A DNA stretch of 64,000 nucleotides from Escherichia coli. Lineage in GTDB: Bacteria; Pseudomonadota; Gammaproteobacteria; Enterobacterales; Enterobacteriaceae. The DNA lies in assembly GCF_003334335.1 (NCBI RefSeq), contig NZ_QOWQ01000008.1. One strand, 5' to 3'. Shown here one piece after another: positions 1 to 12,000 of the stretch; position 1 is the stretch's first letter, and each line of letters opens with the position of its first letter. The position numbers are program-made.

Positions 1-3000
1 CCCGCCAGGCGCTGGAACGCTTTCGCGCGCTGCTGCCGGAGGATGAGAGATGAAAACCCTGGCGACAATCGGCGATAACTGCGTCGATATCTACCCGCAA
101 CTGAATAAAGCGTTTTCTGGCGGTAATGCGGTCAATGTGGCGGTGTACTGCACTCGCTACGGCATACAGCCGGGATGCATTACCTGGGTGGGTGACGATG
201 ACTACGGCACAAAGCTGAAGCAGGATCTCGCCCGCATGGGCGTCGATATCAGCCATGTCCATACGAAACACGGCGTTACCGCACAAACTCAGGTGGAACT
301 GCACGACAATGATCGCGTTTTTGGCGACTACACCGAAGGCGTGATGGCCGACTTTGCCCTGAGTGAAGAGGATTACGCCTGGCTGGCGCAGTATGACATT
401 GTGCACGCGGCAATCTGGGGACATGCGGAAGACGCATTCCCACAGCTGCACGCTGCGGGCAAACTTACCGCTTTCGACTTCTCCGACAAGTGGGACAGCC
501 CGCTCTGGCAGACACTGGTGCCGCATCTCGATTTTGCCTTTGCCTCCGCACCGCAAGAAGACGAAACGCTGCGTCTGAAGATGAAAGCGATTGTTGCCCG
601 TGGCGCAGGAACAGTGATTGTCACGCTGGGTGAAAACGGCAGCATTGCCTGGGATGGCGCGCAGTTCTGGCGTCAGGCTCCTGAACCGGTGACGGTTATC
701 GACACCATGGGTGCCGGAGATTCGTTCATTGCCGGATTCCTTTGCGGCTGGTCTGCGGGGATGACATTACCGCAGGCGATAGCGCAGGGAACGGCGTGCG
801 CGGCGAAAACCATTCAGTACCACGGTGCCTGGTAGGTATAACGTTGGCGTGAGCATCTTCACGCCAACGTGCTGTTACTTGCCGGAAAACGACCCTATAA
901 TCCGAGTAATTCATTCTTTATTTCAGGGTCGATTATGTCAGCTACGGACCGCTACTCTCATCAACTCCTCTACGCTACCGTCCGCCAGCGACTGCTGGAT
1001 GATATCGCGCAGGGGGTTTACCAGGCCGGGCAACAGATCCCTACCGAAAACGAGCTTTGTACACAATATAACGTCAGCCGCATTACCATTCGCAAAGCCA
1101 TCAGCGACTTAGTGGCAGACGGCGTACTGATCCGCTGGCAGGGAAAAGGCACCTTTGTACAAAGCCAGAAAGTTGAAAACGCCCTGCTTACTGTCAGTGG
1201 TTTTACCGATTTTGGCGTCTCACAAGGCAAGGCGACGAAAGAGAAAGTGATCGAACAGGAACGGGTCAGCGCCGCGCCGTTTTGCGAAAAGCTGAACATC
1301 CCCGGAAACAGCGAAGTGTTCCATCTCTGCCGGGTGATGTATCTCGATAAAGAGCCGCTGTTTATTGATAGTTCATGGATCCCGCTGTCGCGTTATCCTG
1401 ACTTTGATGAGATTTACGTCGAAGGAAGCTCCACCTATCAGTTATTTCAGGAGCGTTTTGACACGCGAGTGGTCAGCGACAAAAAGACCATCGATATCTT
1501 TGCCGCCACCCGCCCGCAGGCAAAATGGCTGAAATGCGAACTGGGCGAACCGTTGTTTCGCATCAGCAAAATCGCCTTTGATCAGAATGACAAACCGGTG
1601 CACGTCTCCGAACTCTTCTGCCGCGCCAATCGCATCACCTTAACTATTGATAATAAAAGACATTAACCGTAGGCCGGATAAGATGCGCCAGCATCGCATC
1701 CGGCGATGCTGGCGCGTTGAATTTTACATCCCGTACGTTCCCCTCACCCTAACCCTCTCCCCAAAGGGGCGAGGGGACCGTTCAGTACGGAATTTAGCTT
1801 GACGGTGCTATCCAGCATTAAATACTGGCAATACTCTCACGCAAAATCCGCAGCACCGTCTCTTCACCGCTGCGATTCGGGTTAATGCGAATCGCACAAT
1901 GTTCTGATTGTGGATTCGCCTGGCGAAACGTTCCGGAAAGGCGATAAAAGAGCGGCGGGATTTCATATTTCGACTCTGCACCCACCGGGTAAGGCAAGGC
2001 ACCGCGCTTTTGCGCCTCTTCCAGCACTCTGGCGGCAATCGGCTGATGAAACTCGACAATCAACACCTTCGACTGCGCATTAGCAATCACCGCGCTTTTC
2101 ACTTCCGGCACCGCACCACCGTTAAGCAAAGCCAGCAACCGTTCAGATACCCCTGCCTGCACCGCGTGCATCACTGGCGCAAACACCAGACCACGCAATA
2201 CTTCCAGCGCCTGTGCGCCCTGGATCTGGCTACCGCCGGAGTAAAGCGTGGCGCGAATACGGTTGATAACATCAGCATCGCCGACCACTGCACCAACACC
2301 CTCTGGCCCAAATAGCTTGAAGCAGGAAAATGTCGAGACATTCGCGCCGCATTCACAGCCGATTCGAGCCACCTTCATCACCGCATAGTTGTCATCGGTT
2401 AACGCTGGAACACCTGCCGCGCGCAACGTTGCCAGCACATCTGCCAGCACGTAGCTGTCCTGCGGCTGCTGGCGCGTATGCTGCACCAGCGCCGCATCCG
2501 GTTGTTGCTCGTCGACGACCTGCTTCAGTGCCGACAGGTCATTGAAATCAACAGTAATAAGCGTCAGCCCCATCTGCTCAATAATAACCCGTGTCGTCGG
2601 GTAAACAGGCGCGTCATGCACCAGAAGACGCTGCCCCGGTTTGAGCAAAGCCGCCAGCCCGGCGCGAATCGCGCCAGTCCCCGCGCCCTGCACCAGCGCC
2701 GCAGCCTGTGCGTGAAATGCATCAGCCAGCACCTGTTCCACACGCTGGGTAACGCGCGGTTGATTCAGTCCTGGCGTTAAGCCTAAATCACCGCCAGTAA
2801 GAAACTCGCTGCCGGGGAAATGGCGACAAATGCTATCCACCAGCGCAAACTGCTTTTGCTGCGCCTCAATAATCGTCAGGCTTTGCAGAGGAAACGTCTT
2901 CATAGGTGCCTTCCTTAAGCCGGAACGAACAGGCCAAGCCAGTAAAGAACATTCAGCAGAATACCGGTGATCATTACTGCCACGACCGGTGCCGCCATTT

Positions 3001-9000: not shown

Positions 9001-12000
9001 TTATCCATCTCGACCAGATAACTGCCATTGCGCCCACGGCGTTCAATCCGTATCGCTCCGCTTGATTCCAGCGTTTTCAACGCGGCCTGCGTCAGGCCAA
9101 CGGATGAACGGCATTCATTTGCCAGCTCATCTATGGTTTTCAATCGATTACCGCACTTTTCACCCAACAAATAACGGGCCAGCGTCGTGATGACGACGCC
9201 TTCTTTTTTGATAAACGTTCGACGCATAATAAATTTTCAGTAAATTGAATATTTATATCTTCAGGAATTTGAAGATAAGGCGCAACAGCGAGATGTGGAA
9301 ACGGCGAGGCACTTCACATTTTTTCGGATTATTGCAAATGAGGATAAAAAAACCGGGTTTCCCCGGTTTCAGAGTGATGATAAAAGCAAAATTGCCTGAT
9401 GCGCTACGCTTATCAGGCCTACATTTCCTTGCAATATGTGCATTACTTTGTAGGCCGGATAAGGCGTTCACGCCGCATCCGGCATGAACAAAGCGCAATT
9501 TGCCAGCAATAGTGAATTACGGCTTCGCCACAAAACCAATCGCTTCGTACACCGCTTTTAGCGTACGGGAAGCGTGCGCGCTGGCTTTTTCCGCGCCATC
9601 TTTCATCACCTGTTGCAGGAAGGCTTCATCGTTGCGGAAACGGTGATAGCGTTCCTGCAATTCAGTCAGCATACCGGAAACGGCATCAGCCACTTCACCT
9701 TTCAGATGACCATACATCTTGCCTTCGAACTGTTTTTCCAGTTCTGGGATGCTCTGGCCCGTTACCGCTGAAAGGATATCCAACAGGTTGGAAACGCCCG
9801 CTTTGTTCTGCACATCGTAGCGAACTACCGGCGGCTCGTCGGAGTCAGTGACCGCACGTTTGATTTTCTTCACTACCGATTTCGGATCTTCCAGCAGGCC
9901 GATAACGTTATTGCGATTATCGTCAGACTTGGACATCTTCTTGGTCGGCTCCAGCAGCGACATTACGCGCGCGCCAGATTTCGGAATAAACGGCTCCGGC
10001 ACCTTAAAGATCTCGCCATACAGCGCGTTGAAACGCTGGGCAATATCGCGGCTCAGTTCGAGGTGCTGTTTCTGGTCTTCACCCACCGGTACCAGATTAG
10101 TTTGATACAGCAGGATGTCCGCTGCCATCAGCACCGGATAGTCAAACAGACCAGCGTTGATGTTCTCGGCATAACGCGCAGATTTATCTTTAAACTGCGT
10201 CATGCGACTCAGTTCGCCGAAGTAGGTATAGCAGTTCAGTGCCCAGCCTAACTGTGCATGTTCCGGCACGTGGGACTGAACAAAAATGGTGCTTTTCTCA
10301 GGATCGATACCACAAGCCAGATACAAGGCCAGCGTATCCAGCGTCGCTTTACGCAGCTTCTGTGCATCCTGGCGCACGGTGATCGCGTGTTGGTCAACGA
10401 TACAGTAAATGCAATGGTAGTCATCCTGCATGTTTACCCACTGACGCAGCGCACCCATGTAGTTACCAATGGTCAATTCACCTGAGGGCTGTGCGCCACT
10501 AAAAACGATGGGCTTAGTCATTTTTCGATTCCTGATTTTCGCTATGCGGAAGCCCTAATGCGGGCAGAAGGTCATTTATAGACTGATAAATTACATCAGG
10601 CTGGCTGAGATCGATAGCCTCGCCGTAGTTATATCCGTAGGTTAAGCCAACTGATGGGCAACCTGCCGCTTTTGCCGCCTGAATATCATTGCGTGAGTCG
10701 CCGACAAACAGCATCTGTTGTGGGGCAATTCCCATCCGCTCAGCCACCAGTAACAGCGGGTCCGGATGCGGTTTTTTGTTTTGCACATCATCACCACCAA
10801 TCACCACGCTGAAGTATTTGGCGATATCTAAGGCTTCGAGCAGCGGCGCGACGAACGGCGTCGGTTTGTTGGTGACCAGGCCTAGCGGCAGGCCTTTAGC
10901 CTGCAACGCGCCCAACGTATCGGCAACGTGCGGGAACAAAAACGTCCCCTCTTCGGCAACCTCGCCATAGTAGCGATCGAACAGTTTACGCAGAATACGT
11001 ACCTGTTCTTCTGCCGGAATGTCGTCATCAACGGGCGGTTTACCCATTGTTTTACGCTGAGTCGCACGTTCCTGACGCGCCCAGGTCAATGCGCGCTCCA
11101 TCAGAACATCTGCGCCGTTACCAATCCAGGTAATAACGCGTTCTTCACCTGCGACGGGCAACTCCAGCGCATACAGCGCCATATCTACCGCAGCAGCAAG
11201 ACCAGGAGCACTGTCGACCAGCGTACCATCAAGATCAAAAGCGACGCCGCGAATATCTTCAAACTTATTCATGACTTACCTTTGCCAGTTCACTGCGCAT
11301 TTCATCAATGACTTTTTTGTAGTCTGGCTGGTCGAAGATTGCCGAACCGGCGACGAACATATCCGCGCCCGCCGCAGCGATTTCGCCAATGTTGTTCACC
11401 TTCACGCCACCGTCCACTTCTAGTCGAATGTCAAAGCCAGACTCGTCGATACGGCGACGTACTTCGCGCAGTTTATCCAGTGTTTGAGGAATGAAAGACT
11501 GACCGCCGAAACCAGGGTTGACGGACATCAGCAGGATCACATCCAGCTTATCCATCACGTAATCCAGATAGCTCAGAGGTGTCGCCGGGTTAAATACCAG
11601 ACCCGCTTTACAGCCATTTTCTTTAATCAGTTGCAGCGTGCGGTCAACATGCTCGGAGGCTTCTGGATGAAAGGTAATGATGCTGGCACCAGCGGCAGCG
11701 AAATCAGGCACAATGCGATCGACGGGTTTCACCATCAGGTGTACGTCGATAGGGGCGGTAATGCCATAGTTACGCAAGGATTTCAGCACCATTGGCCCAA
11801 TCGTCAGATTGGGAACATAGTGGTTATCCATGACGTCAAAATGCACGACATCAGCGCCAGCTGCCAGGGCTTTTGCGGTATCTTCACCCAGGCGGGCAAA
11901 ATCAGCCGACAGAATTGAGGGGGCAATCAAATACTGTTTCATCCGCTTCTCCTTGAGAATTATTTTTTCGCGGGTGAAACGACTCCTGGTTTGTACAAAG

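Follow-up and report, generated by a model that had tools for sequence, protein, structure and literature searches.

The yhfZ-yhfS cluster of Escherichia coli: a conserved gene module with a candidate repressor operator and links to sugar phosphotransferase systems

What do the yhf genes of Escherichia coli do, and how are they controlled? The genes yhfS, yhfT, yhfU, php, yhfW, yhfX, yhfY and yhfZ are eight remaining function-less genes of the best-studied bacterium, and they are conserved in at least three phyla. They lie together in the DNA analysed here, a stretch of 64,000 nucleotides (RefSeq assembly GCF_003334335.1, contig NZ_QOWQ01000008.1) that is called the window below. The genes, their names and three crystal structures, and hence the existence of the cluster, are already known. 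That these y-genes form an operon will be no surprise to specialists; their function is the long-standing gap. A first-pass annotation of the window had suggested one translationally coupled operon for an unusual amino sugar, a phospho-sugar-amino-acid conjugate or a lactam, and had stated that no substrate was assigned. The latter statement still stands: no published study of a substrate, a pathway or a regulator was found in the full-text literature, with most subscription journals outside the search, and the mentions found were incidental (a list of bacterial interspersed mosaic elements (BIMEs), knockout and overexpression screens, and a pull-down). By kind, yhf would be a repressor-controlled carbohydrate operon coupled to the phosphotransferase system (PTS). 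The reading preferred here, with a probability of about 0.45, is that of a YhfZ-repressed, substrate-inducible, PTS-coupled regulon with two promoters, which would catabolise an amino-bearing carbohydrate as phosphate esters.

Relatives of the cluster were collected by a genome scan for YhfT using one genome per species, an alignment of 10 sequences and a single peptide pattern. YhfT relatives were found in at least 150 species, a lower bound because of the single pattern. The eight E. coli Yhf proteins were mapped onto 80 retained loci and metagenomic contigs, cited below by L numbers. A seven-gene core of yhfZ, yhfY, php, yhfU, yhfT, yhfX and yhfW co-occurs in Enterobacterales, Vibrionaceae, Sebaldella (Fusobacteriota), Clostridia and Bacilli. 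The association holds down to 27-32% YhfT identity. Gene order is Z-Y-X-W-P-U-T-S in E. coli, Z-Y-P-U-T-X-W in Vibrio and Z-(Y)-U-T-P-(Y)-(S)-X-W in Firmicutes. In every mapped locus U is adjacent to T, with yhfU directly upstream of yhfT, and X is adjacent to W; yhfZ is the first cluster gene in almost all loci. The core includes no kinase. The eighth gene, yhfS, is limited to Enterobacteriaceae proper, Sebaldella and some Firmicutes, and is an accessory, lineage-specific addition outside the core.

Ratios of nonsynonymous to synonymous substitutions (dN/dS) were calculated by the Nei-Gojobori method and ranged across all eight genes from 0.025 to 0.155 against E. albertii and from 0.035 to 0.094 against Citrobacter, with 0.06-0.07 for yhfS and 0.01-0.02 for trpS as comparison gene. 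The value of php against Buttiauxella (L019) was left out as an artefact of open reading frame (ORF) pairing. All eight yhf genes are under purifying selection. Because the same gene set recurs across phyla in shuffled order and every gene is under such selection, the core is one functional module whose members travel together.

Homologues of frl, trpS and cysG were mapped in 30 enterobacterial loci. Throughout Enterobacteriaceae, trpS and cysG enclose the cluster. The frl genes, whose neighbourhood had been pointed out in the first-pass annotation, stand next to yhf in the window (frlC, frlD and frlR at 50-1666), in L001 and in L008. E. coli SCPM-O-B-8794 (L005) and Escherichia sp. E1V33 (L006) have no frl between yhfS and cysG, and frl is likewise lacking there in all other Enterobacteriaceae examined. 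Since frl was inserted at this position in some E. coli only, its adjacency carries no functional information, and frl was rejected as functional context of yhf.

The window comes from the E. coli chromosome, and its positions 1500-9500 match many complete genomes with 100% identity. At least 80% of the 8-kb yhf stretch was recovered in 5060 of 5426 complete E. coli genomes (about 93%). The RefSeq order is frlA-R, followed by yhfS, yhfT, yhfU, php, yhfW, yhfX, yhfY and yhfZ on the opposite strand, and then trpS-gph-rpe-dam. As described in the first-pass annotation, the eight genes are co-directional on the minus strand (1818-9227) and are flanked on both sides by repetitive extragenic palindromic (REP)-type repeats; all eight reading frames are intact (Table 1). 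The overlaps given there, 4 nt for php/yhfW (ATGA) and 1 nt for yhfW/yhfX, were found again. Spacings of about 10-16 nt elsewhere apply to S/T (11 nt), T/U (11 nt), U/php (10 nt) and yhfY/yhfZ (16 nt), and fail for yhfX/yhfY, where the gap is 83 nt. A Shine-Dalgarno sequence is recognisable for all yhf genes except yhfZ. Longer ORF calls, yhfU from a GTG at 4623 (130 aa) and yhfY from a GTG at 8347 (134 aa), both extend into the upstream genes; the alignment of homologues favours the annotated ATG starts of yhfU at 4584 (MKKIG...) and of yhfY at 8305 (METRL...).

YhfZ carries the Pfam domains HTH_41 (PF14502) and YhfZ_C (PF14503), not GntR (PF00392). It passes the NCBIfam model NF041241 ('GntR family transcriptional regulator YhfZ') with 374 bits against a cut-off of 260, and its RefSeq name is GntR family transcription factor; the two-domain layout is GntR-like, yet the protein belongs to a family of its own. 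A 20-bp palindrome, ATnTTCA-N6-TGAAnAT, occurs in three copies in the window (Table 1); the palindrome at 7888-7913 pointed out in the first-pass annotation corresponds to one of them. With at most one mismatch, 0.17 matches were expected in the 64 kb and three were observed, all in the two yhf control regions. The copy in the yhfY/yhfX gap is kept in Citrobacter, Klebsiella, Pluralibacter, Buttiauxella, Yersinia and Ewingella, the copies upstream of yhfZ are kept in 12 enterobacterial genera, and for all three, conservation among enterobacterial genera stands out against diverging non-coding flanks. The same motif was found 20-30 nt upstream of yhfZ homologues in Vibrionaceae, in Sebaldella (three copies in the locus) and in contig L003. 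In Firmicutes, the half-site is a one-base variant, TACA-W6-TGTA, with 11 occurrences in 246 kb, each of them upstream of Z, Y, U or X; in C. cavendishii such sites precede Z, Y and X. Because the motif changes with the regulator and marks both the regulator gene and structural genes, it is most simply read as the predicted operator of YhfZ, which would act as a repressor.

As the 83-nt yhfY/yhfX gap carries a conserved palindrome of the type found upstream of yhfZ, two controlled promoters (yhfZY and yhfXW-php-UTS) appear more likely than the single one implied by one translationally coupled operon. Terminator scanning and RNA folding revealed no terminator in this gap, and read-through from the yhfZ promoter is therefore possible alongside an internal promoter. 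The palindrome in the gap was also considered as terminator or attenuator RNA and was rejected: the AU hairpin reaches only -12 kcal/mol and lacks a U tract, and the terminator scan was negative there. About 44 bp upstream of the first operator, a TGTGA element suggests a putative CRP-like half-site and thereby catabolite control of the yhfZ promoter. A second yhfZ paralogue with the same operator type was observed in Photobacterium lipolyticum and P. frigidiphilum (L062:20101-21293 and L063:20560-21293); at some 7 kb from the main cluster, it stands divergent to an EIIC-EIIA-DUF7916 operon, and the genes downstream of the paralogue lie beyond the locus end.

YhfY matches the Pfam family PRD (PTS regulation domain; PF00874) with an E-value of 9e-4, and the profile of its family (21 homologues) matches the PRD structure of LicT (1TLV; E 1.6e-8), best on PRD2. 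His48 of YhfY pairs with LicT His207; 1TLV has His at this position, and the activated double mutant 1H99 has Asp. The residues H48, A52, R55 and E101 are invariant in the 21 homologues, and His48 stands in the H-x6-R context. The position of LicT His269 is occupied by Asn in proteobacterial YhfY and by His in clostridial homologues. YhfY consists of a single PRD and lacks the antiterminator architecture of BglG/LicT (RNA-binding CAT domain plus two PRDs). It is predicted to be a PTS-phosphorylated co-regulator with His48 as phosphorylation site.

Copies of the candidate operator were also located at genes of PTS components. They precede the enzyme IIC (EIIC) gene that follows yhfW in L003 and L004 and the EIIB gene in Photobacterium L058, and they also lie between the divergently arranged EIIB-EIIC-EIIA-DUF7916 and yhfZ of Vibrio L050 and between EIIC and the second yhfZ paralogue in L062. 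The PTS genes with operators in these five loci belong to the lactose/cellobiose family. In addition, ptsI overlaps the end of yhfW in the clostridial genome L073. The operator-bearing PTS genes, this ptsI and the PRD protein in the core tie the yhf system to the PTS. The DUF7916 gene (DUF, domain of unknown function) is consistently the last one in the cluster-associated PTS operons of lactose/cellobiose type in Vibrionaceae (L050:4258-5148, L058:18387-19343, L070:5125-6015 and others). Its product has 296 aa, matches the Pfam family with 348 bits and weakly resembles DeoC/LacD aldolases. Annotation of DUF7916 and of several small neighbouring ORFs was uninformative.

The domain assignments of the first-pass annotation held, apart from that of YhfU as a mere small DUF protein, which has to be changed to a protein of RpiB/LacAB isomerase fold. 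Php is identical to PDB 1BF6/4LEF ('phosphotriesterase homology protein') and scores 655 bits with NF007373. It has the TIM barrel and binuclear centre of the phosphotriesterase (PTE) family (PF02126), and its metal ligands H12, H14, E125, H158, H186 and D243 are conserved to at least 95% in 24 homologues. Scores with characterised PTE subfamilies were below the cut-offs, with 102 bits against 630 for the phospho-furanose lactonase NF045706 and 100 against 500 for the organophosphate hydrolase NF041153. Php is likely a lactonase or esterase. YhfW was aligned with the phosphopentomutase of B. cereus, and D10, the nucleophile motif DT84xxGH, ETD-x2-GH and the metal sites ADHGNDP and HTRE were recovered; these elements, the metal ligands included, are conserved in 24 homologues, with Thr or Ser in place of the nucleophile Thr84 in all of them. 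The cap region diverges from phosphopentomutase, and the scores stay below the DeoB cut-offs (146 bits against 341 for TIGR01696, 184 against 256 for NF003766), so that only its own model, PRK12383, is passed. YhfW is predicted to be a phosphomutase acting on sugar phosphates.

YhfX and YhfS are enzymes dependent on pyridoxal 5'-phosphate (PLP). YhfX corresponds to PDB 4KBX ('Uncharacterized protein'). Precomputed Pfam domains on its homologues are Ala_racemase_N and YhfX-like_C, which places it among the PLP enzymes of fold-type III. Lys61 is invariant in the motif M-T-K-Q-x-G-R-N-P. The nearest solved relatives of the profile are alanine racemases (E 5.5e-5), with YggS and D-threonine aldolases as remote relatives; the score with the ornithine racemase Orr/alanine racemase model NF040742 is 28 bits against a cut-off of 480. 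YhfS is identical to PDB 4J8L ('Uncharacterized protein YhfS') and is a distant relative of the PLP family of Cys/Met metabolism, with weak matches to methionine gamma-lyase and its relatives far below the cut-offs.

YhfU shows the RpiB/LacAB fold with an invariant loop Cys52-x-Thr/Ser-Gly-x-Gly, which agrees with the catalytic-Cys loop C-G-T-G-x-G of RpiB. Its strong fold matches are ribose-5-phosphate isomerases B only. At sequence level, the match to Pfam LacAB_rpiB is not significant (E 0.16 over 30 residues). YhfT is presumed to be a permease; no structural neighbours were found outside its own family, and weak partial structural matches include ChbC and the EIIC of PtsG. Two further observations concern the YhfT family. 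In AlphaFold Database entry G5HJH7 of Clostridium citroniae (768 aa), a YhfT-like membrane domain is combined with an amidase domain. In the spore-former of locus L002, a distant YhfT homologue (1068-2342; 36% identity) occurs without any other yhf gene, between a Gin (csfB)-like gene and a gene of the Orn/Lys/Arg decarboxylase family, followed by a gene for a SpoIIIAA-like ATPase and tmk. Since this homologue stands alone among genes of sporulation type, the YhfT family has another context as well, possibly one related to sporulation.

Genes attached to the cluster in other genomes were collected as hints to the substrate. In Thalassobacillus and Melghirimyces (L076 and L078), nagB directly follows the cluster. 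The Sebaldella cluster contains a gene with an amidase-like signature between yhfT and yhfS (L060:11347-12378). Phosphatases of four families, e(P4), PhoC, ComB-like and Cof-type haloacid dehalogenase, are attached in L035, L040, L076, L086 and L087. Those of L035 (11339-12154) and L040 (11341-13044), two enterobacteria without yhfS, are periplasmic acid phosphatases on the same strand 39 nt after yhfT, namely a 5'-nucleotidase lipoprotein of the e(P4) family and a PhoC class A phosphatase. Genes resembling 2-keto-3-deoxygluconate (KDG) kinase were found together with a 2-keto-3-deoxy-6-phosphogluconate (KDPG) aldolase gene in the clostridial locus L082, a glucarate-dehydratase-like gene in L083, a D-lactate-dehydrogenase-like gene in L080, and a porin gene by the cluster in V. 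ezurae and V. halioticoli (L070/L071). A secreted protein of about 728 aa with a C-terminal chitin-type carbohydrate-binding module (CBM5/12), the rest of which could not be assigned, adjoins the cluster in six loci of two orders, from Vibrionaceae and from Enterobacterales (L084:13855-16041, L035, L040, L058, L062 and L063). No nucleoside phosphorylase, nucleoside hydrolase or nucleoside transporter was attached in any locus. Altogether, what surrounds the cluster in other genomes suggests PTS carbohydrates and amino sugars.

Gene content, conservation, selection, motif distribution, folds and retained residues were observed; what binds the motif, in which order the steps run and what the substrate is are inferred in the following scheme. 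YhfZ would occupy the ATnTTCA-N6-TGAAnAT copies, two over its own promoter and one ahead of yhfX, and would repress both promoters. Dependence of the regulon on CRP is probable through the upstream half-site. His48 of YhfY would probably be phosphorylated by HPr or a cognate EIIB, and YhfY would report the state of the PTS and modulate YhfZ. The substrate would be an amino sugar, an oxidised lactone or acid form of one, or a small glycoside of one. It would be taken up by YhfT, and in some lineages also by the lactose/cellobiose-family PTS of the same regulon. Php would open an ester or lactone-type bond, YhfW would move the phosphate, and YhfU would turn an aldose into a ketose by means of Cys52. 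The PLP-dependent reaction at the amino carbon (epimerisation, elimination or transamination) would fall to YhfX, and to YhfS where present. The products would enter central metabolism as fructose 6-phosphate, as hinted by nagB, or as a keto-deoxy acid, as hinted by the KDG/KDPG genes. Further specification is tentative and on balance doubtful: the core would be an undescribed route for an unusual amino sugar derivative, either an oxidised lactone or acid (glucosaminolactone/glucosaminate, oxidised chito-oligosaccharide) or a lactam-type cell-wall sugar (muramic delta-lactam), with a transporter of its own fold, a truncated RpiB-like isomerase and a split PRD regulator in which YhfY controls YhfZ.

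Several points weigh against the PTS-coupled regulon. The E. coli cluster contains no PTS gene, and the presence of YhfT throughout has no explanation if some species take up the substrate through a PTS. A scan for the sigma-70 consensus on the minus strand before yhfZ and yhfX gave no promoter match. In Vibrionaceae, no operator was found in the yhfT/yhfX gap, and a separate yhfX promoter is therefore not universal; the pairing of YhfZ with the motif is itself drawn from sequence comparison. Php stands no nearer to the phospho-sugar lactonases than to other characterised PTE subfamilies. With 117 aa against 148-158 aa in the matched RpiB chains, YhfU lacks the C-terminal third; in RpiB dimers this segment completes the active site and supplies phosphate-binding residues. 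The accessory neighbours (nagB, KDG/KDPG genes, glucarate-dehydratase-like and D-lactate-dehydrogenase-like genes, nucleotidase-type phosphatases) point several ways, and some may be there by chance.

The rival explanations differ in the parts of this evidence that they use. That the cluster is cryptic or a decaying remnant in E. coli would agree with the lack of a phenotype or substrate in the literature, with the absence of a consensus promoter, and with lost or broken genes in some lineages: yhfW is missing in several Yersinia (L037, L039, L041-L044, L047 and L048), yhfT and yhfS are split in Trabulsiella odontotermitis (L052), and yhfT and yhfW in Photobacterium sp. JCM 19050 (L084). The frames in E. 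coli are intact, however, the cluster is present in 5060 of the 5426 complete genomes, comparison with E. albertii and Citrobacter gives a dN/dS of about 0.03-0.16 in each of the eight genes, the catalytic residues are conserved, and mass spectrometry of a DNA pull-down from E. coli revealed YhfW protein (PMC7730263). Since dN/dS is low, the catalytic residues are kept and YhfW protein occurs in cells, the cluster is not regarded as a decaying remnant, which would be a very improbable explanation. In genome-wide screens, yhfW was a candidate survival gene with 3-fold higher minimal inhibitory concentrations of ampicillin and trimethoprim in E. coli MG1655, and the yhfZ knockout was among ten Keio mutants resistant to the lacritin peptide N-104; a mechanism was given for neither phenotype (PMC12924614, PMC12147183). 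A single, translationally coupled eight-gene operon for a sugar-amino-acid conjugate (Amadori or Heyns compound), a phospho-sugar-amino-acid or a lactam, related to frl, draws on junctions that, except for yhfX/yhfY, are overlapping or at most 16 nt wide, and on the possible read-through across the terminator-free gap. Two PLP enzymes and a hydrolase of cyclic ester or amide type would suit an amino-acid-like moiety, and an amidase is tied to the cluster in Sebaldella and to YhfT in C. citroniae. Against it, the 83-nt gap holds a conserved operator like those at yhfZ, clostridial loci also have operators before internal genes, yhfS is dispensable in most lineages, the core lacks a deglycase or kinase of frl type, and other E. 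coli, like every other genus examined, have no frl at this position. This explanation is considered unlikely, and a conjugate or lactam substrate is not specifically supported.

A modified pentose, or a sugar derived from a nucleoside or nucleotide, is likewise an unlikely substrate. YhfW and YhfU would then act consecutively like DeoB and RpiB (ribose 1-phosphate to ribose 5-phosphate to ribulose 5-phosphate), and the PLP enzymes would act on an amino substituent. Phosphopentomutases are the best solved relatives of YhfW, ribose-5-phosphate isomerases B are the only strong fold matches of YhfU, and the nucleotidase-type phosphatases e(P4) and PhoC stand directly after yhfT in L035 and L040. 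Nevertheless, genes of nucleoside cleavage or transport are attached nowhere, the PTS genes of the regulon belong to a family that takes hexose glycosides, nagB points to a hexosamine, and YhfW scores far below the DeoB cut-offs. The missing kinase would be explained if YhfU and YhfT formed a new PTS permease, in which YhfU took the part of an EIIB-like phospho-cysteine carrier and YhfT that of EIIC. Adjacency of U and T in every locus, the invariant Cys of YhfU in a glycine-rich loop, the PRD protein in the core, ptsI in L073 and the partial YhfT matches to ChbC and PtsG EIIC all fit. Fold comparison disfavours this arrangement, which is judged quite improbable; a phosphorylatable Cys in the first strand-loop, as in EIIB proteins of the lactose/cellobiose, galactitol and mannitol types, was not found in YhfU.

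Table 1. Coordinates of the yhf genes and of control and border elements in the window.
Feature	Position	Strand	Remarks
yhfS	1818-2903	-	fold-type I PLP enzyme, accessory member
yhfT	2915-4219	-	polytopic membrane protein, presumed permease; signature gene of the cluster
yhfU	4231-4584	-	DUF2620, RpiB/LacAB-like fold
php	4595-5473	-	PTE-family hydrolase with binuclear metal centre
yhfW	5470-6696	-	phosphopentomutase-like metalloenzyme
yhfX	6696-7859	-	fold-type III (alanine-racemase-like) PLP enzyme
yhfY	7943-8305	-	stand-alone PRD protein, 120 aa
yhfZ	8322-9227	-	DNA-binding regulator, HTH_41 + YhfZ_C
Operator-like palindrome ATATTCA-AAAAAA-TGAATAT	7891-7910		41 nt upstream of yhfX start; candidate YhfZ site at internal promoter
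Two palindrome copies just before yhfZ start	9233-9276		9233-9252 and 9257-9276
Putative CRP-like site	9303-9318		TGTGA invariant in 12 enterobacterial genera; second half TCGCC weak
trpS intrinsic terminator	9349-9370	-	terminator scan; upstream border of yhfZ control region
BIME, two inverted REP copies between trpS and trpS terminator	9393-9490		naRNA4-like match at 9453-9489
REP-type repeat between frlR and yhfS	1672-1731		downstream border of the cluster; sub-threshold naRNA4 (REP-derived) Rfam matches
GC-rich imperfect inverted repeat CCCCTCACCCTAACCCTCTCCCCAAAGGGGCGAGGGGAC	~1741-1778		adjoins REP element 3' of yhfS

The inverted repeat at 1741-1778 looks BoxC-like and presumably belongs to another family of dispersed repeats. 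It might act as terminator of the yhf transcript, though no T run follows it. A riboswitch or small RNA in the yhf region was rejected, as Rfam gave only REP-like sub-threshold matches, and a 'riboswitch' paper that lists yhf genes was set aside because its coordinates lie far away. A signature of horizontal transfer was likewise rejected for the cluster, the GC content of which is at background level. The BIME before yhfZ is also contained in the list of PMC2965389.

The function of yhf is now approachable through the predicted operator and repressor, His48 of YhfY, Cys52 of YhfU and a short list of substrate classes. Unusual features of the system are the stand-alone PRD protein beside a separate HTH_41 regulator, a YhfT family without structural relatives coupled to a truncated RpiB-like protein, and a kinase-free set of a PTE hydrolase, a phosphomutase and two PLP folds. 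To our knowledge, PRD signalling is not known to work through a free PRD protein in control of a separate DNA-binding protein. The split PRD/HTH regulator and the YhfT fold, if either is confirmed, would each be new to its field. Should the substrate be an amino sugar from the gut or from chitin, this would give E. coli and Vibrio a further nutrient niche.

The proposed system was finally compared with known ones. PTS-linked pathways for phospho-sugar lactones with a PTE-family lactonase have reportedly been described by the Raushel group (Listeria Lmo2620, Bacillus Bh0225, Mycoplasma MS53_0025). These pathways and the ula system for L-ascorbate share with yhf a PTE-family hydrolase in a carbohydrate cluster tied to the PTS, and with the proposed yhf route a sugar phosphate ester and ring opening followed by isomerase-type steps. 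What sets yhf apart from them is a pair of PLP enzymes, together with a phosphomutase and its own membrane protein family; Php stays at 102 bits against the lactonase cut-off of 630, and the E. coli cluster is without EIIABC. The D-glucosaminate pathway of Salmonella, dgaABCDEF, comprises a mannose-family PTS, the PLP-dependent ammonia-lyase DgaE and a KDPG aldolase. It is likewise an amino-sugar-acid route with a PTS, a PLP enzyme of fold-type I and entry via KDPG, for which the clostridial yhf locus has KDG-kinase-like and KDPG aldolase genes. Control of dga is by sigma-54 and an enhancer-binding protein, whereas yhf has an HTH_41 regulator and a PRD protein; dga lacks a PTE hydrolase, a phosphomutase and an RpiB-like protein, and YhfS is accessory and shows no match of DgaE type. 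The frlABCDR operon, the physical neighbour in the window, is also a catabolic operon under a GntR-type repressor for an amino-substituted sugar, but its kinase, deglycase and epimerase belong to different protein families, and the adjacency is found in some E. coli only.

At the level of single components, BglG and LicT have in common with YhfY a PRD with a phosphorylatable His in H-x6-R context, LicT PRD2 giving the best alignment. YhfY differs by being a single PRD without an RNA- or DNA-binding domain, nucleic-acid binding apparently residing in the separate YhfZ, and by the Asn that replaces the second PRD histidine in Proteobacteria. A small stand-alone PRD protein (TIGR03582) distantly related to YhfY (E 1.6e-6) occurs in the EF_0829/AHA_3910 cluster. 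According to the TIGRFAMs descriptions, that cluster, which has no assigned function either, also includes a PLP enzyme, a hydrolase and functionally uncharacterised membrane proteins. YhfY scores 28 bits against the TIGR03582 cut-off of 69, and the partner families differ. DeoB and RpiB, finally, provide the models for the catalytic core of YhfW and for the fold and catalytic Cys loop of YhfU; both Yhf proteins remain below the thresholds for orthologues, YhfW with a divergent cap and YhfU in truncated form.

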